Source: Candidatus Methylomirabilia bacterium
GTDB lineage: Bacteria > Methylomirabilota > Methylomirabilia > Rokubacteriales > CSP1-6
Assembly: GCA_041493245.1 (NCBI GenBank)
Contig: JBGPYK010000001.1
Span: 1-33,234, forward strand
Direction: 5' to 3'
Length of the DNA stretch: 33,234 bases
The position numbers and the translations under genes were made by a program. Positions 5,309-30,384 of this stretch are shown one piece after another (the first letter of the stretch is position 1; every line of letters begins with the position of its first letter). The notes under the pieces were generated by a model, which saw nothing but the letters and a program-made list of their open reading frames with translations, had not been told where the DNA came from and did no database searches.

Positions 5309-5313
5309 CTCCC

Positions 5314-6321
5314 TCAGCGCGCCGGGCCTCCGCCCTCCGCACCGAACTCGGCGCGATACCACGCCACCGTCCGCCGTAGCCCCTCCCGCAGCGGGACGCT
5401 CGGCTTCCAGCCCAGCGCCCGCAGCCGGCTCGTCTTCGGGGCCCAGCGCTGGGGATCACCGGGTCGCACCGCCCCGCTCCACCGGACCCGCGGGCGAACC
5501 CCCATCAACTCGCTCAGCAGGTCCATCAGCTCCCGGATGCTCGCCGGCTCCCCGCTCGCGACGTTGTACGTCTCGCCCCGGAGGGCGCCGTTCAGCGCCG
5601 CACACACCGCCGCACGCACCACGTCGCCGACGTAGTTGAAGTCGCGCACCTGCGTCCCGTCCCCCAGCGCCTCGATCTCGCCGCTCCTGTTCCCCAGCTT
5701 TCGCATGAAGTCGTACACTACCTGCTTCCGCTGGCGAGGCCCGTACACAGAGAACAGACGGAGCGACGCCATCCGCAGCCCGTACAGCTGCGCGTACACC
5801 GCCACGTACCGCTCCGCGGCGAGCTTGCTGACGCCGTACGGCGAGATCGGCACCGTCGGGTCCTCCTCTCCGACCGACGAGGCCTCGCTCTCCCCGTAGA
5901 CGGCGGCCGACGAGGCGACGATCAGCCCCGTCGCCGGCCGGGTCTTGCGCAACGCCTCCAGCACGGATAGGGTCCCAACGACGTTCAGCTGGAAGTCGTA
6001 CCACGGGTCCTCGACCGAGGGCGGCACGTACGGGTTGGCGGCGAGATGAAAGATCAGGTCGAACTCTCGGGCGCGGAGCAGCTCTCCGAACGTCGCGCTC
6101 AGCACATCGTCCTGCACGTACTCGATCGTCGTCCGGCACTGCTCCAGGTTCGCCATCCGGCCGGTCCTGAGGTCGTCCACGACCGTCACCCGCGCACCGG
6201 CCAAGATGAGAGTCTCCACGAGATGTGAGCCGATGAACCCGGCCCCGCCGGTGACCAGAACCGTTCGTCCCGCGAGCCGCTCGGGCTCGATCACGTCCAA
6301 TCCTTGGTTCTCCTCACGCAC
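5314..6321 (-). CDS. NAD-dependent sugar epimerase/dehydratase (extended SDR, UDP-hexose 4-epimerase-like)
   Basis: VLVTGGAGFIGSHL Rossmann motif, FHLAA, catalytic SPYGVSKLAAE (YxxxK), FSVYGPRQ. GTG start at 6321; GTG 6294 (AAGGA SD) is an alternative. Confidence 0.9.
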   Translation of the reverse strand: MREENQGLDVIEPERLAGRTVLVTGGAGFIGSHLVETLILAGARVTVVDDLRTGRMANLEQCRTTIEYVQDDVLSATFGELLRAREFDLIFHLAANPYVPPSVEDPWYDFQLNVVGTLSVLEALRKTRPATGLIVASSAAVYGESEASSVGEEDPTVPISPYGVSKLAAERYVAVYAQLYGLRMASLRLFSVYGPRQRKQVVYDFMRKLGNRSGEIEALGDGTQVRDFNYVGDVVRAAVCAALNGALRGETYNVASGEPASIRELMDLLSELMGVRPRVRWSGAVRPGDPQRWAPKTSRLRALGWKPSVPLREGLRRTVAWYRAEFGAEGGGPAR

Positions 6322-6327
6322 TCGACG

Positions 6328-7797
6328 TCAACGAGCCGGGCTCGCGGCGGCAGAAGCCCGCACCGCACCACGCCACCCGCCGTGGACCGGCGTTCCCGCT
6401 AGCTTCGCCTCCACGCGCACGAGCGCCGCAGCCAGCGCAAACATGAGCCACAGGTAGCGGAAGCTGCCGACCATCGGATACCCCAGCATGGCGATCGCCA
6501 GCCCGGCCAGCGCAACCAGACTGGCTCGCGCGTATGACGCCAGCTCCGGCTCACCCAGCGCGTCGAACCGGCTCACCAGCACGCGAAGCTGCCGCAAGGC
6601 TACGACGACCAGGGCCACGAGGATTACCAGACCGCCCAGTCCCAGTTCCACTCCCGCCAGGATATAGCTGTTGTGTAGCGGCACGGTGGCACCGGGGATC
6701 CCGGTCTGCACGAGGTGTCGGGCGCTCTCCGGCCAGTTGAGGTGCTGTTGCGCCACGCCCACTCCGAGCACCGGGTGCTCGAGCATCATCCGGATCCCGA
6801 TCGGTGTCGTGCTGACGCGCCAGGCCCCGCTGTCCTCCGCCGCCGCGCCGCTCGGTAACGCGACGGACCCCATGGAGATCACTCGGTCGCGCAGCGGGGC
6901 CCAGGCCATCAAGGCCAGGAAGGTCATCATCGCGACGACCGGCGCGAAGGCCACCACGCGCCGCCGGTCGACCATCCACGCCATCAGAAAGAGCACGATG
7001 GCGGTCGTCAGGATGGCGCCGCGCGTGAAGGATAGCAGGTGAGCGGCACCGAACGCGATGAGGACCAGCACCCCGAGGAGCCGCCGGGACCGGCTTCCCT
7101 GCCGCACCATCCAGAAGAACACGAAGGGCATGAGCGTCTGCAGTGACAGCGGAAGAAAGTCGGGCGTCCCCGTGATGCTATCGATTCGAAACCACCCTTC
7201 CCAATGCTGAAGGTCGAGCCCGGTCTGCCCGCGAAAGAATTGCTGGGACAGGGCATAGGCCGTGGTCGAAGGCGGCCAGACGAAGTGCGTCCATGCCTGG
7301 ACGAGTCCAACCACAGCCGTGACGATGCCAGACGCGACCATCAGCCCCACCACGGTCCGCAGCGCCCGCCGGTCGTCCACGATGGTTACGAAGAGCCACG
7401 CCAGGGCGAAGTAGCTGACGTGCACGACCGCCGCGGACCAGATCTCCTCACGAGTCAAGGGGTTGATCGCCGACGCCAGGACGAGCGCGACGTAGAACCC
7501 CACGAGGATCAGCAGCGGGCTCCTGGTGAATAGCGGCCTTCGCGTCCGCAGCACCCACAGGAGCGCCGACACCGTCACCAGCAGCCCCGCGTACCGCGAC
7601 AGGTTCCACGGCCACTGGCCGATGATGGTGGCGGCAAGCCCGTACACTCCCAGGCGCGGCCACAGCAGGATCGCCAGCGCGGCCGGGAAGGCCACCGCCA
7701 GCCCGAAGGCCACCAGCGGGCTGAACATCGTAAGCAACAACGCGACGAGTCCGAGCTGCGCCGACCCGACACCGATCAGGAGGGCGGCGGGTGGCAT
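6328..7797 (-). CDS. wzy: O-antigen polymerase/ligase family membrane protein (Wzy_C domain)
   Basis: Polytopic protein with LLSFTRGAILTTAIVL and PLHNSYILAGVELGLGGLVIL, typical of the Wzy/WaaL family. ATG 7797 was chosen (upstream gene stops at 7817); the track ORF extends to 7917. Confidence 0.8.
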   Translation of the reverse strand: MPPAALLIGVGSAQLGLVALLLTMFSPLVAFGLAVAFPAALAILLWPRLGVYGLAATIIGQWPWNLSRYAGLLVTVSALLWVLRTRRPLFTRSPLLILVGFYVALVLASAINPLTREEIWSAAVVHVSYFALAWLFVTIVDDRRALRTVVGLMVASGIVTAVVGLVQAWTHFVWPPSTTAYALSQQFFRGQTGLDLQHWEGWFRIDSITGTPDFLPLSLQTLMPFVFFWMVRQGSRSRRLLGVLVLIAFGAAHLLSFTRGAILTTAIVLFLMAWMVDRRRVVAFAPVVAMMTFLALMAWAPLRDRVISMGSVALPSGAAAEDSGAWRVSTTPIGIRMMLEHPVLGVGVAQQHLNWPESARHLVQTGIPGATVPLHNSYILAGVELGLGGLVILVALVVVALRQLRVLVSRFDALGEPELASYARASLVALAGLAIAMLGYPMVGSFRYLWLMFALAAALVRVEAKLAGTPVHGGWRGAVRASAAASPAR

Positions 7798-7816
7798 CAG
7801 GCGCGACGGGCCCACC

Positions 7817-9055
7817 CTACGGCCATGGGCGTCCGCCCTGGTCGCCCCCGGCGCCGAGGCCGCTGGCCGCGGGGGCGAGTCGGCCGGCGGTGACGCCGGC
7901 CAGCCCCAGCGCGGCATCGTACGAGCGCATGATCTCGGCCGCCACGTGATCGGCGCTGAACCGTGCCTCCACCGCGCGCCGTGCCGCCGCGCCCATCGCG
8001 CGCGCGGCCGGAAGGTCCCTCAACAGCGTGATCGTCGCGTCCGCCAGCGCCGCCGGGTCACCCGGAGTGACCAGATAGCCCATCTCGCCGTCGGCGACCG
8101 CCTCCTGGGATCCGTACACCCTCGTGGCCACGATCGGCAGCCCCGTCGCCATCCCCTCCAGCAGGCCGACCGACATGCCGTCCCGGACTGACGGCACCAC
8201 CATCAAGTCGGCGGCCCTCAGCGCCTCCAGCCGGTCCGGGTAGTAGCCCGTGAAGCGCACGTGGGCGGCGACGCCGAGCTCCACGGCCTCGCGCCGAAGA
8301 TCCTCGAGCAGCCAGCCCTCGCCGACCGCCAGGTAGATGGTCTGGGGATGCGCCTGCAGCACCCGGAGCATCGCCCGCAGCATGTACCGGTGGCCCTTCT
8401 CGGGATGCAGTCGCGCCAACTGGATCAGCACGGGGACTCCGTCGGGCAGGCCCAGGGCCGCTCTGGCGGTCCGCCGCTGCTCGACCGTCGCCGGGTAAAT
8501 CTCGCTCGTGTCCACGTAGCTCGGAATGATGTCGACCCTCCCCGCCCGAAACCCGAACCGGACCAGCTCGTCCTTCAGCGTCCCGGAGTTGGCCAGCACC
8601 CGGCGGAAGAAGCGCAGGCTGACGAGGCTCGTCGCCTCCGCCAGCTGCACGCGGAGTGGCCACATCGGGAAGCAGCCGAAGTAAGATCCGACCAGGGGAA
8701 TCCCCAGCCCGGGGCGCGCCAGCAGGGTCGCCACTTCCGCCTTTGCACCGTAGGTATGAACCATGTCGACCTGCTCCCGCTGCAGGACCCGTCGCAGCTT
8801 CACCACCACTCCCGGGTCGTAGTCCCAGCGCGTCGCCACCACCTCACTGGCCAGGCCCCGCCGGATCGCTTCTTCGTGAAGCGCGACTCGCAGCGGCTCC
8901 CCATCCCAGAGGTTCACGATGAGGTGGTCGAACCGGCTCCCGCGGAGCCGCTCGGCCAGCATCAGGATCAGGTTCTCGGGCCCCTGGATGCCGCAGTCGC
9001 AGGATCGGATCGCGGCCACCTTGACGCGTCTCTCGCGCACCGTCCTCCTCTTCAC
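7817..9055 (-). CDS. Glycosyltransferase family 4
   Basis: GT-B C-terminal signature (LARLHPEKGHRYML..., VVPSVRDGMSVGLLEGMATGLPIVATRV). The GTG start overlaps the upstream stop as GTGA (9052-9055). Confidence 0.85.
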   Translation of the reverse strand: MKRRTVRERRVKVAAIRSCDCGIQGPENLILMLAERLRGSRFDHLIVNLWDGEPLRVALHEEAIRRGLASEVVATRWDYDPGVVVKLRRVLQREQVDMVHTYGAKAEVATLLARPGLGIPLVGSYFGCFPMWPLRVQLAEATSLVSLRFFRRVLANSGTLKDELVRFGFRAGRVDIIPSYVDTSEIYPATVEQRRTARAALGLPDGVPVLIQLARLHPEKGHRYMLRAMLRVLQAHPQTIYLAVGEGWLLEDLRREAVELGVAAHVRFTGYYPDRLEALRAADLMVVPSVRDGMSVGLLEGMATGLPIVATRVYGSQEAVADGEMGYLVTPGDPAALADATITLLRDLPAARAMGAAARRAVEARFSADHVAAEIMRSYDAALGLAGVTAGRLAPAASGLGAGGDQGGRPWP

Positions 9056-10623
9056 AGGCGGAATCCGCCGAGGTAGGTGACTCCGCGGATCCCCGCGAGA
9101 TCCCGCGGCGTGCTGATCACGTCGTTGAGATACTCGACCAAGAACACCATCGCGACACCGATCAGCAGTCCCGCCGGGAAGCTCAGCGCCACGATGAACA
9201 GCTTGCGCGGATAGACCGCTTCGATCGCCCGCACGGGCGGGCTCAGCACGGAGATGTTCGCGATCCGACGTCGGTCGAGCTCCTCCACGATGAGGCTCTC
9301 CTCCATCCGCTTGACGTAGGTGAGATAGCTCTCCTCGGCGATCTGTCGCTCACGCTCCAGGTCCCTGATCTGCCGCTCGCCCTCATTGATCTGCCGGAGC
9401 TGCTCCTCGATCTCTCGCACACGCGCGCCCCGCTGCGGCCGGCTCGACTCGAGTCCCGCGATCTGCACTCCCGCCTCCTCGATGCTCTGCATGAAGCTCG
9501 CCTTCACCGGGTTCGCCTGGTACGTGATCGCGCCCACCAGCGTCGAGTCCTCGTTGGCCAACAGTTCGGTCAGTGCGACGATCTCCCGTTCGACGTTCCG
9601 GATCACCTGCGATTCCGGCAAGTAGTGGGTCGAGAGCTTGGCGCGCTCCTGCTGCAGCAGAACGAGTCGATCCTTCCGCGCCTGTACGGACGGGTTGGGA
9701 GTGATACTCTGTGACTGCCGTAGCTCGTCGGGTAGGGCGGCCAGTCGGCCCCGCATGAGCGCCTGCTGCGCCTGCAATGCGACCCTCTTCGCCTCGTTCG
9801 CATCGATCTCGTTCCTCACCGTGTCGAGCTGCTTCAGGAGCATCGTGCGCTGTTCGGCGGTCGACACGAGGTTGAACCTCGCCTTGATCTCTTCCCTTGC
9901 GGCGTCGATCTGCTCGACAAGGCGCTTCCGCGCGGCTACCTGGCGGCTGAAGACGCCTCTGATTTCCACATCGCGGCGCACCTCGATGTGCCGGTCCAAG
10001 TACAGATCCAGGAGCAGGCTCAGGATCCGGACGGACAGATCCGGATCGCCGAACTGGAGCCTCACGGTGATGACATCCGAGTCTCGCTCCGCCTCGACCC
10101 GCAGCGCTCCCTCGATGCCGAGGATGAGCCGCTCGCGATCGCTCAGTCGCTTCTGCAGTCCCGTCGCGACCAAGAGCGCCGCCAACCGTTCCCGCGTCCA
10201 TCCCACGCCGGCGCGAACGTAGTGTGTGATCTTCTGCGGAAGCGTCTGCGGCTCGACCATCGGCATCCGAAACGCGTCCGAGCCGATTTGGTCCACCACC
10301 TCCGTCACCAGGCTCCGCGCCGACAGCAGCTGGATCTCCGAATTCAGCTCCTCCTTGCGGACACCCCCACTCAGGACCGCCCCCTTCTGAACGGTGACCG
10401 GCACCTCGGTGTTCTCGCGACCCAATTTCACCAGAACGCTGGCCTTCGTCTCGTACACCTCTCGCAAGACGAACTGCACCGTGACGTAAGCGCTTAACAC
10501 GGTGGCTGTTACCACCACCGCCAACAGCGCCCGGTACTTCACGAGAGCCGCCTTCCACGCCTCTAGGTCGTCCTCGCCCGCGCCTTTCTGCAGCTCCACC
10601 TCGTCCGTCTCCGCCGCACCCAT
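9052..10623 (-). CDS. Polysaccharide co-polymerase (Wzz/GumC-type chain-length determinant) without a kinase domain
   Basis: N-terminal TM (LLAVVVTATVLSAYVTVQFVL) followed by YETKASVLV (Wzz motif). Long coiled-coil periplasmic region and a C-terminal TM (LFIVALSFPAGLLIGVAMVFLVEYL). AGGAG SD lies 7 nt before ATG 10623. Confidence 0.85.
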   Translation of the reverse strand: MGAAETDEVELQKGAGEDDLEAWKAALVKYRALLAVVVTATVLSAYVTVQFVLREVYETKASVLVKLGRENTEVPVTVQKGAVLSGGVRKEELNSEIQLLSARSLVTEVVDQIGSDAFRMPMVEPQTLPQKITHYVRAGVGWTRERLAALLVATGLQKRLSDRERLILGIEGALRVEAERDSDVITVRLQFGDPDLSVRILSLLLDLYLDRHIEVRRDVEIRGVFSRQVAARKRLVEQIDAAREEIKARFNLVSTAEQRTMLLKQLDTVRNEIDANEAKRVALQAQQALMRGRLAALPDELRQSQSITPNPSVQARKDRLVLLQQERAKLSTHYLPESQVIRNVEREIVALTELLANEDSTLVGAITYQANPVKASFMQSIEEAGVQIAGLESSRPQRGARVREIEEQLRQINEGERQIRDLERERQIAEESYLTYVKRMEESLIVEELDRRRIANISVLSPPVRAIEAVYPRKLFIVALSFPAGLLIGVAMVFLVEYLNDVISTPRDLAGIRGVTYLGGFRL

Positions 10624-13363: not shown

Positions 13364-14269
13364 TTACAGCGCCCCGGAGCCCTTGATCATCGCCATTACA
13401 GTCTTCAAGAGCAGGCGGACATCAGTCCAGCGGGACCGCCGCAAGACGTAGTCGACGTCCTGCCTCACAGTCTCCGGGAAGTTCAGGAGGCCGCGGCCAC
13501 TCACCTGGGCCTGGCCCGTGATCCCGGGCTTGACCTTGAACTTCAACCGCTCCCACGTCCGGTAGTACCGCGCCATTTCGACCATCTCGGGACGAGGGCC
13601 GACCAGCGCGATGTCTCCCTTCAAGACGTTCCAGAAGTTAGGCAGTTCGTCCAGACTCGTCCGCCGCAGAAACCGGCCGAGCCGAGACACTCGCGGGTCC
13701 TCTGGGATCTGGAGGTACAGTGACGATAGGGCCTCCTCCTTCCCCTCGAAGGCGAACAGTTGCGGATAGCGCTGACGGCTGTCGTTCCGCATGGTTCGAA
13801 ACTTCCAGAAAACGAAGGGGCGCCCGGGCAGGTCCTGCGCTCGCCGCTCGCTCCGTCGTCGCTCTCGGCCCGCGTGCCCGCCGCTCGCACGACGGCGCCG
13901 GCGATCGCTCCTCCGCCGTCGGTCCTGTCCGATTCGCATCTGCCGGAAGATGACGGGGCCGGGCGACTCCAGGCGGATCAGCACTGCGATGACCAGCATG
14001 AGCGGAAGCGACAGGACAAGGAGCACGCCCGCGATGATCCGGCCCAGTGCAGTCGGCAGTCCCGGTTGGATCTCCACGGCGTCGCGATCCAACCTGTGGT
14101 CCCAGTCCGGGATCCGGGCCCGGTCGTCGCGGAGCTCGGTCGCGCGCACCAGGGACCCGACCGCGCGTCCATCGGACCTCTGCCCGCCGTTGTGCCCGTT
14201 CAGCGCCGCCGCCCGTCCACTCCCCTCACTGAGGCGTCCGACCGCGCGTCCACCGCCCTCCTGCTCCAC
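13364..14269 (-). CDS. Priming phosphoglycosyl transferase (bacterial sugar transferase, PglC/WbaP C-terminal type) with Arg-rich insertion
   Basis: Single hydrophobic helix (IIAGVLLVLSLPLMLVIAVLI), then PGPVIFRQMRIG ... FWKFRTM ... DELPNFWNVLKGDIALVGPRP ... KPGITG. The GTG 14269 start was chosen for the GGGAG SD 7 nt upstream and because it lies 13 nt after the rSAM stop. The track start 14341 would overlap the rSAM gene. Confidence 0.85.
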   Translation of the reverse strand: MEQEGGGRAVGRLSEGSGRAAALNGHNGGQRSDGRAVGSLVRATELRDDRARIPDWDHRLDRDAVEIQPGLPTALGRIIAGVLLVLSLPLMLVIAVLIRLESPGPVIFRQMRIGQDRRRRSDRRRRRASGGHAGRERRRSERRAQDLPGRPFVFWKFRTMRNDSRQRYPQLFAFEGKEEALSSLYLQIPEDPRVSRLGRFLRRTSLDELPNFWNVLKGDIALVGPRPEMVEMARYYRTWERLKFKVKPGITGQAQVSGRGLLNFPETVRQDVDYVLRRSRWTDVRLLLKTVMAMIKGSGAL

Positions 14270-14282
14270 CGACGGGCTCCCT

Positions 14283-15383
14283 CTACCCGTGAATGGTGAG
14301 CGGCGGACCGCCGTTCGGTAGGCGATGCTCGAAGATGTCACAGCGATCGCAGATCGTACCCACGGTCGGCTTCCCGCGGGCCGAGAACAACGCCCGCGCC
14401 GATCTGAACTTCTCGTTGTTCCAGAGTTCCTCGTGATCTTGCGTGAGGCTATCTCCGAAGTCGTTCTTCTCCCCGTACACGATGCAGCAGGGTGACACCC
14501 GCCCGTCGGGGTTCACGGTGAGCGAGCGGTAGAGGTAGAAACACGCCGACTTCCGGGGCTTCTGGAGGAACTGGTACTGGCCGGTGTCCACCCGGGAGGC
14601 GGCGGCGCCGAACTCCGGGTACCACTCGCGCCGCAGCTTCGCCTTGTTCTCCGCCTCCATCGGCAGCCCGACCGGGATGAAGCGCAGGAGGTCCACCCCG
14701 ATCTCCTTGGCCAGCCTTCTCGCCTCGTCCACCTGATGGATGTTGTGCTTCATCACGATGAACTGCCACTCAATGAACGGCGTCTTCCGTCCGAGGCTCT
14801 GTCGCCGCTCGATCAACTGCCGCAGGTTGTCCAGGACGAGCTTCAAGTCGCCCTGCCGGCGGTAGTGGGCGTACACCTCCTGCGTGGTGCCGTCCAGCGA
14901 CACCGTCAAGTACTCGAGGCCCGACCGGGCCAGGTTGTCGATGTCCGTTTCCCGTACCGTGTTGAGGTTCGAGCTCATCGCCGGCAGGAGGTTCTTGCTG
15001 GCCGCGTACTCGATCATCCGGAAGATGTCCTTGTTGAGAAGGGGCTCCCCCCAATTGTAGAGGTTGACCTCGTACGCGTAGGGGGCGTAGCGGTCGATGA
15101 TACCCGTGAAGCAGTCGTACTTCAGCATGCCCGCGCGGCGACCGAGGTCACCCGTCCCTGTGGGGCAGAGAGGGCAGCGGAGATTGCAGACGTTGGTGGG
15201 ATCGACGAACAGGATGTACGGGTGCCCGCGCACGACCTCTCGCCTCAGCAGCCATTCGGCCTCAACGCGCAGGAGGTTCGTGACCTTCCGCCACGTGCTG
15301 TGCACGAGCAGGCTCCGGAGGTGCTTCGCGTGCCTGCGGTATTGCGGAACCTTTTCCAGCTGTCGGCGGAGGCGCCGTGTCAT
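14283..15383 (-). CDS. Radical SAM enzyme with reduced SPASM/Twitch-like C-terminal Cys motif
   Basis: CNLRCPLCP (CxxxCxxC) about 65 aa in. C-terminal C-x17-CC ... ELWNNEKF ... CDRC. ATG 15383 is preferred (GAGGA SD 7 nt upstream); GTG 15473 and ATG 15407 are alternatives. Confidence 0.85.
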   Translation of the reverse strand: MTRRLRRQLEKVPQYRRHAKHLRSLLVHSTWRKVTNLLRVEAEWLLRREVVRGHPYILFVDPTNVCNLRCPLCPTGTGDLGRRAGMLKYDCFTGIIDRYAPYAYEVNLYNWGEPLLNKDIFRMIEYAASKNLLPAMSSNLNTVRETDIDNLARSGLEYLTVSLDGTTQEVYAHYRRQGDLKLVLDNLRQLIERRQSLGRKTPFIEWQFIVMKHNIHQVDEARRLAKEIGVDLLRFIPVGLPMEAENKAKLRREWYPEFGAAASRVDTGQYQFLQKPRKSACFYLYRSLTVNPDGRVSPCCIVYGEKNDFGDSLTQDHEELWNNEKFRSARALFSARGKPTVGTICDRCDIFEHRLPNGGPPLTIHG

Positions 15384-15475: not shown

Positions 15476-16255
15476 CTACTGCGTCAGCCTCACGCCGTTG
15501 AGCTGGTACACGTAGCTGAACCCCATGAGCCGTGAGATCGGAGTCAGGATGATCTTGTCCAAGTACTGGTCCACGAAGTCGCCGACCTTCGCCACGGTGC
15601 TCTTCGGCACGTAGACGACGTCGAACGGCTGGAGGGTGACCTCCGCGCCGTTCCCAGGCTGCTCGACCAGCTTCTTGACGTCGACGAAGAGCACGGCCGG
15701 CACCTCGGCGCCGGCATTGCGGATGATCGCCACGTTACGGGGCTCCGCCGAAGCCTTTAGCCACCCGACCTGGATCAGCGCCTGGAGAAGCGTCGGGGGG
15801 GCGTCGAACGAGACCAGGCCCGGACTGTTGACTTCCCCCCCGACGTAGGCCTTCTGGCCGGAGAACTTCCGGACGAGCACCGAGATCTCGGGGTTCCTCA
15901 GGGTCCCCGCGTACCGCTCGCGGAGCATCCGGGCCAACTGCTCCGCCGTCAGGCCGGCAGCGTCGACCTCTCCGATCAGCTGCAGGGCGATCCGTCCATC
16001 GGGACGGACGGTCACGCTCTCGTTCAACTCCGTGGTGTGGAAGAACTTGACGTCCAGCGCATCGCCCCGCTGGAGGCGGTACTCCGCGCCCTCTGCACTT
16101 CCCGGGGTCCCCGGGCGCTTCGCATCGGCGGCCGGGCGTCCCACCTGCTCGGGCAGGGACGCGGTCGCGCAGCCGGCAGCGAGCAGGATCGCGCCGGCCA
16201 AGCGCCAGCCGCGTCCGACCCAGACACCCACGGGCGAGAGCGCTGTGTTAGTCAT
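15476..16255 (-). CDS. wza: Outer-membrane polysaccharide export (OPX/Wza-family) lipoprotein, short form
   Basis: Lipobox-like LLAAGC. Poly_export motif (YRLQRGDALDVKFF...VRPDGRIALQLIGEVDAAGLT) and one SLBB-like domain. Start is ATG 16255 or ATG 16291. Confidence 0.85.
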   Translation of the reverse strand: MTNTALSPVGVWVGRGWRLAGAILLAAGCATASLPEQVGRPAADAKRPGTPGSAEGAEYRLQRGDALDVKFFHTTELNESVTVRPDGRIALQLIGEVDAAGLTAEQLARMLRERYAGTLRNPEISVLVRKFSGQKAYVGGEVNSPGLVSFDAPPTLLQALIQVGWLKASAEPRNVAIIRNAGAEVPAVLFVDVKKLVEQPGNGAEVTLQPFDVVYVPKSTVAKVGDFVDQYLDKIILTPISRLMGFSYVYQLNGVRLTQ

Positions 16256-16291
16256 CAGTAGCTTGACTTTGTGCCGCACATATCGCGCCAT

Positions 16292-20951: not shown

Positions 20952-21926
20952 TTATCCAGGCCGGCTCACGTGCGGCGGGGACGGCCTCAGCGCGTTCGCC
21001 ACGAGCATCACGAGCGTGCGCACGCCGAGCCCCACGAAGGCGGCCCCCCGCATCGGGCTCAGCGCGGAAGGCACGTCGTGCTTGCAGTAGTATCGATAGG
21101 CGCCCCGGTGGAAATCGATGATCGCGCGCGGCCGCTGCTTGCTGATCATCTGACCCTCGAGGTGGACCACTCGGGCCGAGGGGACCACGTAGAGTTTCCA
21201 CCCGCGGTCCTTCATGCGCCGGCACCAGTCCACGTCGCTCCAGTATACGAAGAAGCCCTCGTCCATCCCGCCGACGTCGTCGATCGTCTCGCGCCGGATC
21301 AGGATGCATGCTGACGACACGCTGTCCACCTCGTATGGCCCCGTCGGTCGCGCGTACGCGCTCGTCAGGTACCGCCGCGAGAACCGGTTGTTGGGGAACC
21401 AGCGTCGCAGCAGCGATCGCCGTCCGAAGAACGCCGCCAGCGGCGTGGGGAAGGCTTTGTGCGCCCCCTGCTCCGTGCCGTCTGCGTACAGGAGCTGGGG
21501 GCCGACGGCCCCCGCCTCCGGGTGCGCCCGCTGAAACCGCATCAGCTCCTCCAGCGCCGCCTGCGGGATCTCCGTGTCGTCGTTCAGGAAGAGGAAGTGG
21601 CGGCCGCGCGCCAGGGAGATGGCCTGGTTCCCGGCCCGGGTCAGGCCCGGATTCTCCGCGTTCGCCACGACCCGCACGTCGGGATGCCGGTCTCCCAGCA
21701 TTCGTACTGTCCCGTCCCGGGAGCTGTTGTCGACGACGATCACCTCGTACGGGATCGCGACACAGGCGGTGCGCAGGCTCCGGAGGCACTGGTCCAGCAT
21801 CGGCGCCCGGTTGTACGTCACGACACCCACCGAGAGCTCGACGGCCGGATCTGGGGGTGCCATCCGGCTCACCCTCGCCCGGCTGCTCTCATCCGCGTCA
21901 CCCACCTCTCCTCTCCTCGGCGCCAT
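20952..21926 (-). CDS. Glycosyltransferase family 2 (GT-A, rhamnosyltransferase-like)
   Basis: SVGVVTYNRAPML, VVDNSSRDGT, FLFLNDDTEI, GGMDEGFFVYWSDVDWCRR. Start is ATG 21926 or ATG 21863. Confidence 0.85.
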   Translation of the reverse strand: MAPRRGEVGDADESSRARVSRMAPPDPAVELSVGVVTYNRAPMLDQCLRSLRTACVAIPYEVIVVDNSSRDGTVRMLGDRHPDVRVVANAENPGLTRAGNQAISLARGRHFLFLNDDTEIPQAALEELMRFQRAHPEAGAVGPQLLYADGTEQGAHKAFPTPLAAFFGRRSLLRRWFPNNRFSRRYLTSAYARPTGPYEVDSVSSACILIRRETIDDVGGMDEGFFVYWSDVDWCRRMKDRGWKLYVVPSARVVHLEGQMISKQRPRAIIDFHRGAYRYYCKHDVPSALSPMRGAAFVGLGVRTLVMLVANALRPSPPHVSRPG

Positions 21927-21929
21927 CCT

Positions 21930-22190
21930 CAGTCCGCTTCGTGTCCGCGTCCTCGTAGAAGTCCTTCACCGAGGCCCGCACGCTGACCCGCCGCAAGGTG
22001 GACTACCGCGTCGACATCGACGCACGCCGTGAGCATCGCATCGGCGTCGCGCACGTCCGCGTGAACGGGTCACACGTCTCCCGCCTGCCCGCCACGGAGG
22101 GACCCCGCGCCGCCCACCCCGTTACGCGTGCCTACCCAGGGCGCATCCGTTAGGGCCGGCCGCCACCCCTGACGCCCCCGCGGTCCGAAC
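21930..22190 (-). pseudogene. Degraded fragment of an extended-SDR epimerase/dehydratase gene
   Basis: The minus strand reads PVHADVRDADAMLTACVDVDAVVHLAAG (from 22066). After a frame change it reads VRASVKDFYEDADTKRT, which is the DxxD...VvHLAA...S..dp core of sugar SDRs. An in-frame TGA lies just upstream, and the fragment is cut off at the GT2 start. Confidence 0.35.
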
Positions 22191-22207
22191 TCGAACTCGG
22201 TCCGCCC

Positions 22208-22873
22208 TCATCCGCCAGCCCGCCGCCGGCTCGACCTGGAGCTCAGCACGACCCCGATGATCTGGATCCGCAGCCCGTCGAGCACGCGCTTGATCTCGCG
22301 AACCTCGGCCCGGCGTCGCTTGCCCGCCGCGATCACGATGACCACACCGTCCACGTGGGGCGCGATCAGCGTCGCTTCCACCGACTCGAGGATCGGCGGG
22401 GAGTCGACGAGCACCAACGGGAACTTCCCGCGCAAGGTGCGCATGACACCCGAGTAGCCGGCCGGCGTCAAGAGCGCCACGGGGTCCGCGACAGCCTCGC
22501 CCACTGGAAGGACGGACAGCCCCGGGACCTCCGTGGCGTGAATCGCCTCGTCCACGCTGGCCTTCTTCGCGATGACATCCGACAGGCCCGGGACCGGCGT
22601 GACCTCGAAGGTCACGTGCAGGGACGGCGCGCGCACGTTCGCCTCCACCAGGAGGACGGGCCCCTGCTCCATCTGGGCCAGCGCGATCCCGATGCGGCTG
22701 ACGATCGTGCTCACCCCGTCCCCCGTCGCCGCGCCTGTGAACAGGATCACCTTCTCCGGCGTCGTGCACGCGGCCCGCAGCCGCGCCGCTAAGCGGACCG
22801 CGTCCTCGGGGACACGAAGGGGCCACATCGGGTCTTCACCGCCATCGGTCTGCGTGTCGAGCTGAGCGCCCAC
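22208..22873 (-). CDS. Stand-alone BY-kinase-like (CpsD/CapB/Wzc C-terminal type) P-loop protein with degenerate Walker A and no Tyr tail
   Basis: ILFTGAATGDGVSTIV (Walker A position, Lys replaced by Val), VLLVEANVRAPSLH (Walker A'), LSVLPVG, LVLVDSPPI (Walker B). The C-terminus SSRSSRRRAGG lacks Tyr. GTG start at 22873. Confidence 0.75.
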   Translation of the reverse strand: MGAQLDTQTDGGEDPMWPLRVPEDAVRLAARLRAACTTPEKVILFTGAATGDGVSTIVSRIGIALAQMEQGPVLLVEANVRAPSLHVTFEVTPVPGLSDVIAKKASVDEAIHATEVPGLSVLPVGEAVADPVALLTPAGYSGVMRTLRGKFPLVLVDSPPILESVEATLIAPHVDGVVIVIAAGKRRRAEVREIKRVLDGLRIQIIGVVLSSRSSRRRAGG

Positions 22874-22876
22874 CCT

Positions 22877-23119
22877 TCACTCGCGCCGTCGGGCGTCCTC
22901 GCCAGGCCGCCCGTCATTGACTCGAGCCCCGACCGCGAGGCGCCGCACCTCTCCCGGCGTGGTCGGCGTCATGTCGCCACAGCGTACCACATCGGGCTCT
23001 TCGGGAAGTCGTGTGGGTGACATCCGGGGGTCGATGGAGCTGAAACCCGCTCTGGGGACGACCCAGAGCGCCCTTGATGGGCGGTGCCCCAGCCGACTCA
23101 TGTCGAGGCCTGTGCGCAT
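22877..23119 (-). pseudogene. Possible N-terminal remnant of a GT4 gene (or an unrelated 80-aa ORF)
   Basis: Begins MRTGLDMSRLGH, against MIRIGLDMSRLGH of the GT4 at 19733-20857, with matching nucleotide stretches (gacatgag..ctggg.cac). Similarity is lost after about 13 codons. It fills the gap between the GT-C stop and the kinase-like start. Confidence 0.3.
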
Positions 23120-23158
23120 GCCAGCCCCGCTCCCGCGCGACGCTCGATCACCGGTCCA

Positions 23159-24433
23159 TCACGCGGACCGGACGTCGCGGTCGGCGCCGCCACCCAAATC
23201 TCCCCTGGTCAACGTCGCGCTCACCCAGCTCCCGATGAACATGGCGACCAGCGCGATCAGCGCATAGTCGACCGGGAGGCGATAGCGGATCCGCGTGTGG
23301 AAGATCGCGTAGATGAAGGCACTCGACACGTACAGCCACGCCAGCAGCACCTCGAACGCCGACAGCGGATACCGCTTTCGGCGGGCCACGCGCACGATGA
23401 AGAGCAGCAGCAGGGGCACGTAGGTGAGGCCCATGACGACCGTCTTCGCCCAGGAGGCCTCGGCTGCTGCGTAATGCTGATTGTAGAAGCTGAAGTGGTT
23501 GAGCACTTTCAAGAAGTAGAAGCCGATCGTCCCCGTCCTGTTCGCCAACATCGCCTTCACGGCTTCCGACGTAAAGTAGGCGCTGCGCTCGACCTCGTTC
23601 ATGGCCGCGGCAGCCGCGTACTGGCGGATCAGAAAATCGACGTCGGCCCCCCCGATCGTCGCGTGCTCCGAGTTTCCCCACAGGAGCGCCGCGCCCGAGC
23701 CCGTCGTGAAGAGGACGAAGGACCCGAACACTAGATAATTCCGGAGCGTCCATAGCCCGGCGACCAGGAACGCCGGCACCACCACCGCCACCGCCGACCG
23801 GATCCTCCGCTCGCGCCTGGTGATCAATAGCCACCCGACGACGACGGCCAGGAAGAACACGAACAGGGGAATCGTGAGGAGGAGACAGCCGAACACCAGG
23901 CCCACCGGCACGAGCGACCGAGTCCGGACCGCTCTGGAGAGGAGGAACAGGACCAGGACGAAGAGCAGCGCGCCGAGCGTCTGGGGAAAGAGCGTGCCGG
24001 CGGCGTAGAAGAGCACGGGGTAGCAGACGACCAGCATCGCCGCGACCACTCCTGCGAAGTCCGAGACGAGGCTCCGCACCATCGCGTAGAGCAGGTAGAT
24101 GGACAGGGCCAGCGCCACGAAGTTGAGGACCCGGAGGGCGGGCACCCCGGCGCCGAGAAAGACCAGCAGGGAGAGGACGAGCGGGTACGCGGGCGCCCGG
24201 GACGCGTTGGGATGCTCGCCGTCAGCCGAGTAGACGTGCTTGTGGGCGACGTTCTTGGCGATCGCGTAGTAGTCGCGCTCGTCGATATAGGGAAGGTGAT
24301 CGCCCAGATAGAACGAGTACGGTATGCCCGCCAGGAGCACCACTCCGACCAGCGTCCCGACGAGGAGGCGCCCCCTCGCCTCCACGGCCCCCGCGATGTA
24401 CCGCGCTGCTCCGGTCACGCCGACCGCGAACAC
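23159..24433 (-). CDS. GT-C fold glycosyltransferase (ArnT/PMT-like, GT39/GT83-type; polyprenyl-phosphate-sugar dependent)
   Basis: ~425 aa with about 10-12 TM helices. First-loop acidic motif LPYIDERDYY and overall ArnT/PMT-like topology. GTG 24433 lies 1 nt after the reconstructed stop of the upstream pseudogene; GTG 24418 is an alternative. The track ORF to 24913 was rejected. Confidence 0.75.
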   Translation of the reverse strand: MFAVGVTGAARYIAGAVEARGRLLVGTLVGVVLLAGIPYSFYLGDHLPYIDERDYYAIAKNVAHKHVYSADGEHPNASRAPAYPLVLSLLVFLGAGVPALRVLNFVALALSIYLLYAMVRSLVSDFAGVVAAMLVVCYPVLFYAAGTLFPQTLGALLFVLVLFLLSRAVRTRSLVPVGLVFGCLLLTIPLFVFFLAVVVGWLLITRRERRIRSAVAVVVPAFLVAGLWTLRNYLVFGSFVLFTTGSGAALLWGNSEHATIGGADVDFLIRQYAAAAAMNEVERSAYFTSEAVKAMLANRTGTIGFYFLKVLNHFSFYNQHYAAAEASWAKTVVMGLTYVPLLLLFIVRVARRKRYPLSAFEVLLAWLYVSSAFIYAIFHTRIRYRLPVDYALIALVAMFIGSWVSATLTRGDLGGGADRDVRSA

Positions 24434-24434
24434 G

Positions 24435-25091
24435 TCAGGTGGCGCCCGATCTGCCTGGGCCTTTCGGCCGCCCGGCGTCCTTTCGCGTGTCGGATAGCAC
24501 GATGCCGAGGAGCTTGACCTCCACGCCATCGAGGATCCGCTTGATCTCCCGCACCTCGGCGCCGCTCGCCGGCGGCCACCACGAGAACCACGCCGCCGGC
24601 CCGCGGAGCGATCAGCGCCGTGTCGGTGAATCCGAGGCCGGGCGGGCCGTCGAGGACAATGAACCGGAACAGCCGGCGCAACGCCTGCATCACGTCGGCG
24701 TACCCGGTGGACGCGAGGAGCGAGAGCGGCTCGGCGAGGGGGCTTCCGGCGGGTAACACGAACAGCGACGGAATCTCGGAGACGCGAACGGCGGACTCGA
24801 TGTCCGTCTTCTTCAGGAACAGCTCCGACAGCCCCGGGACCCGCTCCACCTCGAACGTCTCGTGCGCGGACGGCGCCGTAGGTTGAGATCGACGAGCAAG
24901 ACGCGGTCCTCATTCATGTGAGCGACCGCGACGGATACCTGCGTCGCGACAATGCTGACGCCGTCCCCGCCGTACGCCCCGGCGAACAGGACCACGTTCT
25001 CCGATTCCGTGAACACGGCGCGAAGCCGCGCGGCGAGGCGGACTCCGTCCTCGCGTAGCTGGAGCGGATCCCGACACGCCGGCTCGCTCAC
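24435..25091 (-). pseudogene. Second BY-kinase-like paralog, disrupted by two compensating frameshifts
   Basis: Three collinear segments match the 22208-22873 protein. Segment 1 (25091 to ~24876): DPLQLREDGVRLAARLRA...VLFAGAYGGDGVS...VLLVDLNLRR. Segment 2 (other frame, ~24875 to ~24562): PSAHETFEVERVPGLSE...FIVLDGPPG...VVLVVAAGERR. Segment 3 (back in the first frame): AEVREIKRILDGVEVKLLGIVLS... to TGA at 24435-24437. The GTG start overlaps the GT2 stop as GTGA (25088-25091). Total length is 657 nt, which is 219 codons. Confidence 0.75.
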
Positions 25092-26275
25092 AGGCGGCGC
25101 ATTCCGAGGATGCTGACGAAGAAGCTGGACAGAACCGTCTGAAATCCCATCGCCGTCAGCGTGACTCCCGGCACGACCAGTCGCATCGTGCGAGCGTAGT
25201 CCAGCGGCCCGAAATCGGCGAGCCGCCACTGGTTGACCGCGCCCAGGAGCAGCGTCACACCAATGAGCATCGCCGCCGCGGCGACGATCAGCCCTCGCTC
25301 CAGGTTGACCAGCTCGAAGAAGCGGGTCGTGAACGGATCTTCGGGCAGGAGGCCCTCACTGATCGCGAAGGTCTTCGTAAAGATGGCGAAGAGCATCGAC
25401 TGGTAGCCGATCAAGACGGCCAGACTCGCGAACAGTAGGGTGTGGGCGTCGAAGGCGACACCCCGGAACCTGAAACCGGGCATGGCCAAGGCGTACCCGA
25501 GCAGGCCCAGGACTACCAGCGCCACGCCGGGGACGAGGAACAGCCAGCGCGGAGAGTACATGAGGAAGAAGCGCAGGGTGCGCCAGCCGTCGCGAAACGT
25601 CTTGAGGTGCGGCGGGTGCGCCTTCCGGCCGTCGAGGTGCAGCGTGATCGGGACTTCCGCGATCTTCGCCCCGCGCAAGCTCGACTTGATGATCATCTCG
25701 GTCGCGAATTCCATACCCGTGCAGCGTTGGCCGAGCCGGTCGTACAGGGCCCTGGTGAAACCGCGGAAGCCGCAGTACACGTCGTGGATCGGCGCGCCGA
25801 ACCAGCGTCGGGCCATCAGTGAGAACTGGGGATTGCCCCACCAGCGATGCAGGAAAGGCATGGCACCCGGCATCACCCGGCCCCCGCCAGACGGCAGACG
25901 ACAGCCCTGCACCAGGTCGTAACCCTGCCGGAGCTTCGCCACAAACCTGGGCAACTCGAGGAAATCGTAGCTGTCATCGGCGTCGCCCATGATCACGAAC
26001 CGGCCCCGGGCCGCCGCGATGCCGCCCATGAGGGCGTTGCCGTAGCCCCGGGCCTCCACGCGAATCACGCGCGCGCCCAGGCGGCGAGCGATGTCGCCCG
26101 ACCCATCGGCGCTGCCGTTGTCGGCCACGATGATCTCGCCCGCGATGTCGTTCTCGCGCAGCGCGCGCTGCGCCTTGCCGATGCACGTTTCCAGCGTGTC
26201 CGCCTCGTTCAGGCACGGCATTACCACCGTCACCTCGGGGTTCTCCTCGATCCTTCCCTGGCCTCCGTGCATCAC
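25088..26275 (-). CDS. GT2 polyprenyl-phosphate glycosyltransferase (Dpm1/GtrB/ArnC-like) with C-terminal 4-TM domain
   Basis: VVMPCLNEADTLETCI, IVADNGSADGS and IMGDADDSYD (DxD), followed by four hydrophobic helices. First gene after a 430-nt AT-richer gap. Confidence 0.85.
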   Translation of the reverse strand: MMHGGQGRIEENPEVTVVMPCLNEADTLETCIGKAQRALRENDIAGEIIVADNGSADGSGDIARRLGARVIRVEARGYGNALMGGIAAARGRFVIMGDADDSYDFLELPRFVAKLRQGYDLVQGCRLPSGGGRVMPGAMPFLHRWWGNPQFSLMARRWFGAPIHDVYCGFRGFTRALYDRLGQRCTGMEFATEMIIKSSLRGAKIAEVPITLHLDGRKAHPPHLKTFRDGWRTLRFFLMYSPRWLFLVPGVALVVLGLLGYALAMPGFRFRGVAFDAHTLLFASLAVLIGYQSMLFAIFTKTFAISEGLLPEDPFTTRFFELVNLERGLIVAAAAMLIGVTLLLGAVNQWRLADFGPLDYARTMRLVVPGVTLTAMGFQTVLSSFFVSILGMRRL

Positions 26276-27892: not shown

Positions 27893-28317
27893 GTTCGCTC
27901 ACCTTTCCGAGGCGCCCGAGTCCGGATCCACCTGCGACATACCACAGCTGCCAGGCCCTATCAACCCCCACGAATCACGTGTGTAGGGAGCACATGATCT
28001 GTCCGCTCCCGAGAGCAAATGAAATGTCCGCTTCTGAGACGCCTGGAAGCCGCACGTAGGTACCGCGGCCAGGCATAGTCACTCACGCCCGTAACCACTG
28101 GACATCATGCGATTTTGCTCTCGAGACCGTGGAAGTTCGGCCAGCGCTGTGCCGGCCTACGCCAAATTTCTCCCGGATCTCGCGGGACCGCCGCCATGGT
28201 CGGCTCGACGGCCTCCGAAGGGCCCGCAACCGGCCGTGCTTCCGAGCCCCGATGGGCCTGTGATACGCGCCCATGATAGGGTCAACGGCGACCGTATCCG
28301 GCGCCAAGGAGACCTTC
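27893..28317. promoter_or_regulatory. Divergent intergenic region between the SGNH gene (minus) and the GT-C-like gene (plus)
   Basis: 425-nt gap between divergent genes. It contains a 15-bp direct repeat (see the 28000-28039 feature) and a CACGTG palindrome at 27976-27981. Confidence 0.35.
28000..28039. repeat. Direct repeat TGTCCGCTCCCGAGA / TGTCCGCTTCTGAGA (13/15), 25 bp start to start
   Basis: Read directly at 28000-28014 and 28025-28039. Confidence 0.55.
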
Positions 28318-29790
28318 GTGTCCGACTTCAGCGGCCACGTCCGCCCGACACTGGCCGAGCGTCCAGGCCACACCTCACCGGGGCCCAGCGGCGTGCCGGG
28401 TCCCCGCCTCCCCCGTCGCTTCCTCCTCTTGCTAGGACTGGCCCTCCTCTACTACGTGATCAACAAGCACCCCCAGTATCAGCCGCAGGAGCACGAGCTG
28501 TCGGCGCCCGTCCCGCTTTTGCCCATCCCGATCGTTGTCTGGCACACGATCGGCTGGCTCATCTTCGGAACCGGATTGTGGACGCTGTTCGCGTCCCGCG
28601 CCGAGTGGGCTCCTTCCGCCGACGACGTGCCGCTTCGCCGGAGCGCGCTCGCGACCCTCGCCCTCGCGTTCGCCATCGAGCTCGTGGCCCGGCTTTCCGG
28701 CGTCGGCTTCTTCGGCCTCGAGCAGCGCGTCGGCTGGGCAGGGCTGTTGGTCCCGGGGACGCTCGGCCTCCTCGCCCTCGCGGCGCTGCTACGGTGGCCC
28801 CCGGCCACTCCGGTCCTCACGCTCCTGATGCTGGCCGGTGGGCTCGGCGTCCGTCTGAGCTGGCTCGCCCTGGTCCCCCCGGATCCCAAGCACTCCGACA
28901 ACATGTTCGTCATCCGCGGGGGATTCGAGCGACTCGTGGCAGGCCAGACGCCCTACGCGTACTTCGACTTCGGAACGCACACCAACCCGATGCCGTACCT
29001 GCCCTGGACGTTCCTCAGCTACCTGCCGCCGTTCCTCGCCCGGCTGGATCTGCGCGTGACGAGCATCGTCCTGTCCCTGGCACTCGTTCTGCTGCTCTGG
29101 GCCCTTTTCCGAGCGCTTCCGATGAGCCCCACCGTTCGAAACGGGCTGGTGCTGGTCCTGGGCGTCCTCTACGCCCTGCCTCTGAGCATCAGCCTCGACG
29201 TGCAAACCGAGTTCCCGATGTTCAACCTGATGCTGGTGCTCACGTTTGCACTGATCGCGCTGCGGCGACTTCACCCAGCGGCCGTGGTCTACGGTGTCGC
29301 GTTGGGGGCCATGCCGGTCGCGCTCTACACCGTCGCCCCACTGCTGTGCTTCACCGTCCGCGGCAGACCATGGCGGCAGGCGGCAAGTCTGGTGGCGATC
29401 GTCTTGGTCGTGGCCGGCGTGCCGGTGTTGGCGTTTCTGTTCTGGGACCCTCACGCGTTCCTGTGGGCCGTCTCCTACGTCCCGCGCGAGGCCTGGAAGA
29501 GCCTGGACAACGGGCACTGGGACACGCCGTTCACGCCGATCGTCTGGCACCGTCTCGGAGGCTGGCTCCGTGCGGTCCAGGTCGCTTGGTTCCTCGTCTT
29601 CGCCACGCTAGCCTGGCAGCGCCTCCGCACCGTGCACGGGTTGATTGCCCTCGCTGCCGGGAGCCATCTGGCACTCGTCCTGTCCGGGCCCTATGTCGGG
29701 CCTCATCTCGTCCAGGTGGTGCTCTTCCTCGCGGTGCTGGGGGAGGCCGTCCGGGCTGCCGAGGTGGAGAGCCTGCCTCGTTCAGCCTGA
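28318..29790 (+). CDS. Polytopic membrane protein, GT-C-like (DUF2029/GT87-type polyprenyl-phosphate-sugar glycosyltransferase)
   Basis: About 11+ TM helices. First-loop motif HSDNMFVIRGGFERLVAGQTPYAYF...NPMPYLPWTFLSYLP resembles the D..vy..g...l.G..pY...f.Y.P motif of DUF2029/GT87. GTG 28318 has AAGGAG 6 nt upstream; ATG 28273 is an alternative. The overlapping 627-aa ORF in another frame was rejected. Confidence 0.65.
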   Translation: MSDFSGHVRPTLAERPGHTSPGPSGVPGPRLPRRFLLLLGLALLYYVINKHPQYQPQEHELSAPVPLLPIPIVVWHTIGWLIFGTGLWTLFASRAEWAPSADDVPLRRSALATLALAFAIELVARLSGVGFFGLEQRVGWAGLLVPGTLGLLALAALLRWPPATPVLTLLMLAGGLGVRLSWLALVPPDPKHSDNMFVIRGGFERLVAGQTPYAYFDFGTHTNPMPYLPWTFLSYLPPFLARLDLRVTSIVLSLALVLLLWALFRALPMSPTVRNGLVLVLGVLYALPLSISLDVQTEFPMFNLMLVLTFALIALRRLHPAAVVYGVALGAMPVALYTVAPLLCFTVRGRPWRQAASLVAIVLVVAGVPVLAFLFWDPHAFLWAVSYVPREAWKSLDNGHWDTPFTPIVWHRLGGWLRAVQVAWFLVFATLAWQRLRTVHGLIALAAGSHLALVLSGPYVGPHLVQVVLFLAVLGEAVRAAEVESLPRSA

Positions 29791-30384
29791 CCGGCACCCC
29801 TCCGCCACGCCATCCGCTCCGGCCGGACCCGCGCCTCTGCGGCGTCCAAGGCCCGCCGTCTCGCAGTCCCAAGGTTCCGCGCCCCGACGCATTCTTGTCA
29901 CCTTACAACCAGGGCATGCCAGCTTGTCACAGCTTCCCTAGCCGGGCCGCGGGGGCGCCCGGGGAACCACGGGTTCTGCCAGGGCCTTGACATCATTAAA
30001 TCCTCTCACCACCCCCCTCGGGCCTGGCTTTGGCACGCCTCTGCCCGTCCTCGGCAGTCACAGCGGAGCGCCGCGTTAGGCGAGGTGCTCGCCGAGGAGT
30101 ATCTCGTGGTCAAGCGTACGAAGACGGACAGGCGAGGCGGGGCGTCGACGGGCACCACCTCACGGAAACCTTCTCGAAGCTCGTCGCAGCAACCCTGTGG
30201 CTGCCTACACGGAAAACTTCCAATCATGCAACCGGTTAGCGCGCGGTTTGCCAATACTTGTAAGAGTGCTGCCCGATCTCGAAGGTTACGTCGTTGCCCT
30301 CCGAACCACGGACCTTAACAGGAGCGGATGAGGCGATCGAGTCGACTGGCATGCGGATTGAACCTTCAGTCTGGCAGCAGTAGT

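Follow-up and report, generated by a model that had tools for sequence, protein, structure and literature searches.

The window analysed here is a 33,234 bp stretch of contig JBGPYK010000001.1 (positions 1 to 33,234 of the forward strand; assembly GCA_041493245.1) from a Candidatus Methylomirabilia bacterium in the order Rokubacteriales. It holds one long minus-strand polysaccharide gene cluster, with several glycosyltransferases of families GT4 and GT2 and nucleotide-sugar enzymes. Our target is the minus-strand gene at 22208-22873, encoding a stand-alone protein of 221 residues (GTG start) that was identified through the NCBIfam models for bacterial tyrosine kinases (BY-kinases) and through its predicted fold, and that lacks catalytic residues of those enzymes. 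The target is probably a BY pseudokinase that docks on the tail of a kinase-less class 2 polysaccharide co-polymerase (PCP-2) and acts as a non-catalytic scaffold of the polysaccharide export machine. The proposed partner is the PCP-2 of 523 residues at 9052-10623 (minus strand), whose Pfam and NCBIfam matches are Wzz and GNVR domains only; the absence of a fused kinase, claimed in a preliminary description of the window made from the sequence, is thus borne out.

Other minus-strand genes of the cluster belong to a Wzx/Wzy pathway. These encode a Wzx-like flippase (Polysacc_synt, 3968-5362), a Wzy-like polymerase (Wzy_C, 6328-7917), a Wza/OPX-like outer-membrane export protein (Poly_export plus SLBB by Pfam and NCBIfam, 15476-16291) and a small initiating phosphoglycosyltransferase (PGT; Bac_transf, 13364-14269, the start being approximate and taken from the gene call on related contig L025). 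Directly upstream of the PGT gene lies that of a radical SAM/SPASM enzyme (14283-15383), which co-occurs with the pseudokinase family and the PGT.

The target reading frame cannot be extended because a TGA stop stands two codons upstream of it. M16 (ATG at 22826-22828) is a possible alternative start giving 206 residues; it would trim only an N-terminus of low confidence and would leave every motif unaffected. The Walker A motif, G47-AATGD-G53-V54-S55-T56 (22706-22735), retains its glycines and its Ser/Thr, and Val replaces the Lys; direct reading places GDGVST at 22706-22723. Pairwise alignment matches V54 to the catalytic Lys in VpsO and CapB, and to the Met introduced in the engineered CapB K55M. 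Walker A' is also degenerate, V73-LLV-E77-A-N79-V-R81 (22631-22657), with D-x-D-x-R changed to E-x-N-x-R (the family consensus is D-A-N-L-R). Walker B is kept as L153-VLV-D157-SPP (22394-22417), and D157 is invariant in the closest clade. Where canonical kinases carry their Tyr cluster the target ends in SSRSSRRRAGG (22211-22243), a short, basic tail free of Tyr; the internal Y140 is the sole Tyr of the whole protein, and no hidden Tyr cluster was found in the three frames downstream of the stop. The preliminary description had given the VEAN reading of Walker A', the intact Walker B, and a BY-kinase-like protein without Walker A Lys or Tyr tail, and these hold up, the former two by direct reading and the last by sequence reading, alignments and fold together. 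Near the N-terminus the helix E23-DAVRLAAR-LR33 (22775-22807) carries a modified form of the oligomerisation motif (O-motif) as defined in PMC9800525, D24-x2-R27-x3-R31 rather than E-x2-R-x2-R; it is seen in both the family logo and the AlphaFold2 model, where the helix spans residues 23-35.

A sequencing or frame error was considered as the source of GDGVST and ruled out, the codons being identical in five independent assemblies. Besides the window these are three JGI metagenome contigs and one Logan contig (L025, L026, L027 and L029, about 98-99% DNA identity), and because all four keep the 221-residue frame and the motif, GDGVST is not a sequencing error. The only amino-acid changes among the five are A34V, V58I and S120F. 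No choice of start site and none of the five assemblies yields a canonical GK[ST], and a search of the long open reading frames (ORFs) of the window, in any frame, found no G....GK[ST]. Scans for promoters and terminators across 21800-23300, and with Rfam across the whole window, detected nothing.

The best NCBIfam match of the target is TIGR01007 (4.5e-31; 108.0 bits, just below the curated cut-off of 108.05). TIGR03018 follows (4.7e-28, score 97.9 against a cut-off of 230.65), then the EpsG model (3.5e-26, below its curated cut-off), and the MinD models reach 5.5e-12 or weaker. Pfam gives sub-threshold P-loop matches only (BcsQ, AAA_31, ParA, MipZ). The PDB sequence matches are VpsO (8e-22), CapB chimeras (about 1e-19), BceF, Wzc and Etk, with MinD at 3e-8. 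The AlphaFold2 model, built from a 40-sequence alignment, is confident (mean pLDDT 89.7, pTM 0.87), and all of its top 50 Foldseek matches in the PDB are BY-kinase domains (CapB, Wzc, Etk, BceF, VpsO), with query-normalised TM-scores of 0.75-0.83 over about 190-210 columns. As modelled, then, the target has a complete BY-kinase fold. Among catalytic BY-kinase features it has the P-loop BY-kinase fold and the Walker B hhhh-D-x-x-P; it lacks the Walker A Lys, the Walker A' D-x-D, the Tyr cluster and a score above the curated hidden Markov model cut-off. In species-representative genomes its closest relatives share at most 36% identity and are mostly canonical fused kinases.

A wider search for such motif variants and their gene neighbourhoods, called for by the preliminary description, uncovered a large Lys-less family in polysaccharide loci. 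A profile made from the clade was run against a library of 1.84 billion representative proteins, and the motifs of the 150 best representatives, with 160 matched domains between them, were tabulated. The Walker A Lys is missing in 121 of the 160, most often replaced by Val (49), Ala (29), Thr (16) or Ser (15). The other losses go with it: Asn occupies the position of the second Walker A' Asp in 78 of the 121 Lys-less domains versus 2 of the 39 Lys-keeping domains, and tail Tyr is absent from 95/121 versus 8/39. Lys-keeping domains mostly retain D-x-D (36/39), and 21 of them have at least three tail Tyr. Lys-less tails have a median of 9 residues after the last strand, are without Tyr in 79% of cases and have a mean net charge of +1.8; the median for Lys-containing tails is 26 residues, with at least two Tyr in 88%. 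The closest relatives of the target (P0002-P0008, 45-55% identity) all carry G-[DE]-G-[VTN]-[ST]-T and D-A-N, and their tails are short and lack a Tyr cluster; in this clade G53, T56, D157 and P160 are invariant and position 55 is Ser or Thr throughout. Canonical E-G-K-[ST] and D-x-D, together with tails rich in Tyr, are found in the next tier (P0009-P0015, about 30-38%).

Column logos of the Lys-less family show further marks of its own. The N-terminal helix reads S-[ED]-D-A-[VI]-R-L-A-A-R-L-R; Walker A begins with Gly where the canonical residue is Ser; behind the P-loop helix, Gln/Glu takes the position of an Asn that is 90% conserved; and Arg/His takes that of a conserved Thr. The Lys-less signature is carried by at least about 100 clusters at 50% identity. 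Judged from these sequences, Lys loss is a trait of a large family and is older than the split between the target and its paralog in the window, as had been proposed.

That paralog, at 24435-25091 (minus strand), does carry GDGVS as first described, but three-frame translation and DNA alignment with L025-L027 make it a frameshifted pseudogene. It has no open frame: its N-terminal part, middle and tail lie in frames 2, 1 and 2. One lesion, a 1-nt deletion at about 24874-24875 inside L-N-L-R-x-P-S, is common to the window and three related contigs, and because those three independent JGI contigs share it, it is real and not an assembly error. The other, a 5-bp deletion between 24558 and 24557, is in the window only; other assemblies call the paralog as fragments of 92 and 139 residues. 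Relative to these relatives the paralog differs at 16 of 690 bases, the target at 7 of 666 and the adjoining GT-C gene at 14-15 of 1275, so that the divergence of the paralog is about twice that of the other two. Once repaired, it is only 48% identical to the target, and it groups in the tree with P0054, P0002 and P0005, the target grouping with P0003 and P0004. The two thus appear from the tree and alignments to be two old subtypes of one Lys-less family, one dead and the other intact in the lineage of the window.

The pseudogene is the middle member of a triad, between genes for a GT2 enzyme with a C-terminal membrane domain (GT2_TM_C, 25088-26275, minus strand) and a PMT_2-like GT-C membrane glycosyltransferase (23159-24433, minus strand). 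The order GT2, pseudokinase, GT-C is conserved in three lineages (window 23159-26275, minus strand; the P0002 contig; L036 5690-9090), and from the coordinates the stop and start codons of successive genes overlap or abut. The GT-C proteins of the window and L036 are 52% identical. In the lineage of the window the GT2 and GT-C genes remain intact around the decayed middle gene.

After its second transmembrane segment the PCP at 9052-10623 ends in a cytoplasmic tail of 24 residues, NDVISTPRDLAGIRGVTYLGGFRL (9055-9126, minus strand), which is the proposed docking segment. It is patterned like the juxtamembrane linker of fused PCP-kinases, for example VEYLDNTIKSPDDVDKYFRLPLLGQIP, and like the activator tail of CapA; the PCP tails of related loci resemble it. 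We compared the loci of six other family members, four of them long enough to judge for a PCP. All six lie in polysaccharide gene clusters, most with a small Bac_transf gene, and each of the four has a Poly_export gene and a PCP or PCP-like protein that lacks a kinase and ends in a docking-type tail. No match to a tyrosine phosphatase of the low-molecular-weight type (LMW-PTP) or PHP phosphatase was found in any of the related loci. Within the window there is likewise no LMW-PTP signature and no phosphatase Pfam match, in agreement with the preliminary description.

The concept of a pseudokinase partner is already published (EcpK/EpsV and HfsB/HfsA in PMC12004946, GumC in PMC9800525). One stand-alone BY pseudokinase, EcpK of Myxococcus xanthus (MXAN_7447), described in 2025, interacts directly with EpsV, a PCP-2 without a kinase, and is needed for exopolysaccharide (EPS; PMC12004946). 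That paper also summarises the holdfast system of Caulobacter crescentus, in which HfsB stabilises HfsA, and, with reference to an earlier sequence survey, proposes a third, phosphorylation-independent PCP-2 subfamily that is widespread among Gram-negative bacteria. In the CapA/CapB pair, and in the model of EcpK with EpsV, it is a C-terminal segment of the PCP that docks on the kinase-fold protein (PMC12004946). By its sequence and gene context the target belongs to this class when set beside EcpK and HfsB as they are described: it has the fold without the catalytic residues, no Tyr-rich tail, and a PCP-2 without a kinase domain in the same Wzx/Wzy pathway.

The likeness to EcpK/EpsV is closest. 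Both have a stand-alone BY-kinase-fold protein in a Wzx/Wzy EPS pathway with a kinase-less PCP-2, and both proteins lack the catalytic Lys and a Tyr tail, have a basic C-terminus and are encoded apart from the PCP gene; by analogy the target, too, may act as a scaffold through the cytoplasmic C-terminus of its PCP. However, EcpK by its published description is without all three Walker motifs and several secondary-structure elements (its sheet is five-stranded), whereas the target keeps Walker B, the glycine loop and the Ser/Thr, and about 200 of its 221 residues align to CapB and Wzc with a TM-score of about 0.8. EcpK also ends in a basic alpha-helix, where the target has a short unstructured basic stretch. 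HfsB, as summarised in PMC12004946, is likewise a stand-alone BY-kinase-like protein with no catalytic residues, no Tyr tail and a kinase-less PCP-2 partner; it is described as having a C-terminal helix modelled against the transmembrane base of the PCP, in contrast to the 11-residue basic tail of the target.

CapB (with CapA), VpsO and Wzc share the fold of the target and are its best matches in sequence and structure, and the CapB/CapA pair shares its bipartite arrangement, including a PCP with an activator-like tail. The natural GDGVST mimics the engineered GAGMST of CapB K55M (2VED). That mutant and Wzc K540M (3LA6, 7NHR), both changed at the Lys, still form octameric rings with Mg2+ or nucleotide. 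Unlike these kinases, the target is also without the second Walker A' Asp, the whole Tyr cluster and a nearby phosphatase. GumC of Xanthomonas, called a "pseudo-BY-kinase" (PMC9800525), resembles the target in having a BY-kinase-like cytosolic domain without the Y-cluster and in a phosphorylation-independent role proposed to be clustering or scaffolding; its domain is fused to the PCP and that of the target is a separate polypeptide.

Autophosphorylation is implausible because the target has neither the Walker A Lys nor the second Walker A' Asp, and no Tyr cluster. In characterised enzymes, the Walker A Lys mutants ExoP K589I and VpsO K551A have reduced or abolished kinase activity, as do the Walker A' mutants YwqD D81A/D83A and Acinetobacter baumannii Wzc D569N, and the role proposed for the second Walker A' Asp is recognition of the substrate tyrosine (PMC9800525). 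Loss of phosphotransfer is thus most likely, as predicted from the motif losses, and since no cognate phosphatase gene lies near the target either, no phosphorylation cycle would be possible. Binding to the PCP tail and the formation of a ring or scaffold are most likely too, by analogy with the systems above.

In the mechanism that we propose, the target would dock on the 24-residue tail of the PCP, as CapB does on CapA and EcpK on EpsV; docking is proposed because this kinase-less PCP has retained a tail like that of CapA and the Wzc linker. Once docked, it would form an oligomer, probably by means of the modified O-motif helix, and serve as a scaffold for the PCP; the PCP oligomer so held would couple Wzy-dependent polymerisation to export through the Wza-like channel. 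This scaffold would work without a cycle of phosphorylation and dephosphorylation. Through its glycine loop, Ser55 and Asp157 the target may remain able to bind Mg2+ or nucleotide, favouring a closed, ring-competent state as in Wzc K540M and CapB K55M. Wzc K540M has lost its ATPase and still oligomerises with Mg2+ or ATP-Mg2+, and the mark of the closed state is a hydrogen bond that joins the Walker B Asp to the Walker A Thr (PMC9800525), a pair that corresponds to D157 and S55 in the target. The preliminary description had suggested a nucleotide-independent or non-phosphorylating scaffold variant of the PCP-kinase machine. A non-phosphorylating partner of the PCP is supported; nucleotide independence is not, the Mg2+-coordinating pair S55 and D157 being conserved in the closest clade.

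Several observations weigh against this account. The target is not adjacent to the PCP gene, lying about 11.6 kb away on the same strand of the same cluster; its syntenic relatives lie between GT2 and GT-C genes or adjoin the radical SAM gene; the kinase and phosphatase searches cover the window, and a canonical enzyme may be encoded elsewhere in the genome. Conservation at the pocket also drifts in the wider family (G53 73%, S/T55 76%, Walker B D157 63%), which speaks against a nucleotide site kept by all members; constraint at the pocket is apparent in the closest clade but not in the wider family. Given the neighbours of the syntenic relatives, the direct partner could be a protein other than the PCP, with the pseudokinase serving as a regulatory or assembly subunit of the GT2/GT-C pair or of the radical SAM/SPASM enzyme and PGT. 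Canonical BY-kinases do act on other polysaccharide-synthesis enzymes, the triad is conserved with tightly packed genes in the window, the P0002 contig and L036, and the radical SAM gene directly adjoins the pseudokinase in three other lineages. We nevertheless regard another partner as unlikely: neither neighbourhood is universal, the target itself is outside the triad, the triad copy has decayed beside an intact GT2 and GT-C, and the radical SAM family is large by itself and sometimes fused to a PGT but not to the pseudokinase. Each locus long enough to judge, on the other hand, has a PCP or PCP-like protein without a kinase and with a tail of the docking type.

Catalysis through a relocated residue, which would make the target an active ATPase or kinase phosphorylating a tyrosine in trans, such as Tyr518 in the PCP tail or its own Tyr140, is less probable again. 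The target retains the glycine-rich loop, S55, T56, R81 and D157, all conserved in the closest clade; the PCP tails of both the window and L030 have an aromatic residue or Tyr near the end; and A. baumannii Wzc K547Q is reported with kinase activity "not affected" (PMC9800525). But three catalytic or substrate features (Lys, second A' Asp and Tyr cluster) have been lost together, the pocket is further degenerate in the wider family, no related locus has a phosphatase, and Walker A Lys mutation abolishes the activity of ExoP and VpsO and the ATPase of Wzc K540M. That the target is a decaying, non-functional BY-kinase remnant is very improbable. The neighbouring paralog is a real pseudogene, the catalytic residues of the target are gone, and its within-species substitutions (4 synonymous, 3 non-synonymous) are too few to prove purifying selection; yet its frame is intact and its length constant in five assemblies, the fold is predicted with confidence, and intact homologs at 40-55% identity share a signature that includes the family-only N-terminal helix and is common to the clusters counted above. 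The intact ORF, the conserved signature and the linked motif losses support selection on the target rather than decay. A MinD/ParA-type positioning ATPase unrelated to polysaccharide export, to which only the weak sub-cut-off Pfam matches to BcsQ, AAA_31, ParA and MipZ point, is effectively refuted. BY-kinase models and structures score better by many orders of magnitude (the comparison that the preliminary description had set as a check, with TIGR01007 and VpsO ahead of MinD), both lysines of the deviant Walker A K-G-G-x-G-K-[ST] of MinD, ParA and BcsQ are absent, and in the loci examined family members are always within Wzx/Wzy polysaccharide clusters.

Cycling of BY-kinases between phosphorylated and dephosphorylated states is the textbook account of how PCP-2 proteins control the chain length and export of capsule and exopolysaccharide, and pseudokinase partners show that the PCP-2 machine can run without phosphorylation. 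To our knowledge two stand-alone BY pseudokinases have been studied experimentally, EcpK and HfsB. The locus described here adds a large and so far uncharacterised environmental family, recognisable by G-x5-G-[VAT]-[ST], D-A-N-L-R, an N-terminal S-E-D-A-V-R-L-A-A-R-L-R helix and a short basic tail. Because it is much less degenerate than the published EcpK, this family is suited to asking whether ligand binding, ring formation and PCP docking outlast catalysis. Metagenome records label such proteins "protein-tyrosine kinase" or "capsular exopolysaccharide synthesis family protein", and on Lys-less proteins the kinase labels overstate activity.

A bolder and rather doubtful extension of the scaffold proposal, to which we still give some weight, is that the family is an intermediate kind of pseudokinase, without phosphotransfer but with ligand binding kept through the glycine loop, Ser55 and Asp157, and with PCP ring assembly and disassembly gated by ligand (Mg2+ or nucleotide) and possibly tied to the radical SAM/SPASM and PGT module. 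If true, ligand occupancy would replace the kinase/phosphatase cycle as the gate of PCP ring assembly, and the tie to radical SAM/SPASM and PGT would define a distinct, widespread and so far uncharacterised type of Wzx/Wzy pathway in uncultivated diderm bacteria.

The radical SAM/SPASM enzyme has clear orthologs in six of the eight lineages of pseudokinase loci that were examined (loci L001, L025, L030, L032 and L036 besides the window). Its family exceeds 3,000 proteins at E<=1e-30, with 50-79% identity, and is fused to Bac_transf in P0298-P0301 and P0360 (510-598 residues). No specific NCBIfam family matched the enzyme, and a literature search on the association of radical SAM/SPASM enzymes with sugar transferases found nothing relevant.

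Below the target, 825 bp of the window (21331-22155) are replaced by about 180 bp in L025-L027, contigs that are otherwise 98-99% identical. The stretch covers the N-terminal part of a GT2 gene (20952-21926) and the spacer below the target; because of the replacement this GT2 gene is intact in the window only, and L025-L027 show small epimerase-like gene fragments in its place. At the edge of the cluster, the match of the ORF at 433-1032 to the solute-binding profile SBP_bac_5 is confined to the C-terminal part (profile positions 203-338 of 368), and the ORFs just upstream of it have no Pfam match; the region 433-1750 (minus strand) may be a truncated or disrupted gene, going by this partial match. 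A 627-residue ORF at 28107-29990 has no Pfam or NCBIfam match, does not resemble the large unannotated protein of L036, and was treated as unrelated to the pseudokinase question. An RmlD-like gene first suspected to be split by an assembly indel proved intact in one frame, and the suspicion was rejected.

Two further groups of Lys-less domains were seen among the library representatives. Six proteins (P0095, P0105, P0113, P0116, P0146 and P0103) have tandem BY-kinase-like domains, in most of which the N-terminal domain is without the Lys and the C-terminal one is canonical (G-K-S, D-x-D), both being degenerate in P0103; judged by their motifs, the tandem proteins resemble natural fusions of a pseudokinase with a kinase. 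In a second Lys-less subfamily the motif is G-E-G-[TV]-S-T, and a conserved C-terminal R-x-Y-x-I-P-x-F-x-Y-x-x-L replaces the Tyr cluster. Its members include P0017, P0028, P0029, P0034, P0134, P0138 and P0145 among others (loci L006, L014, L019 and L034), from metagenome-assembled genomes of Nitrospinaceae, Nitrospira (where the domain is fused to a PCP) and Desulfatiglandaceae. In L034 the member adjoins a protein with AAA_22 and SPOR domains within an EPS locus.

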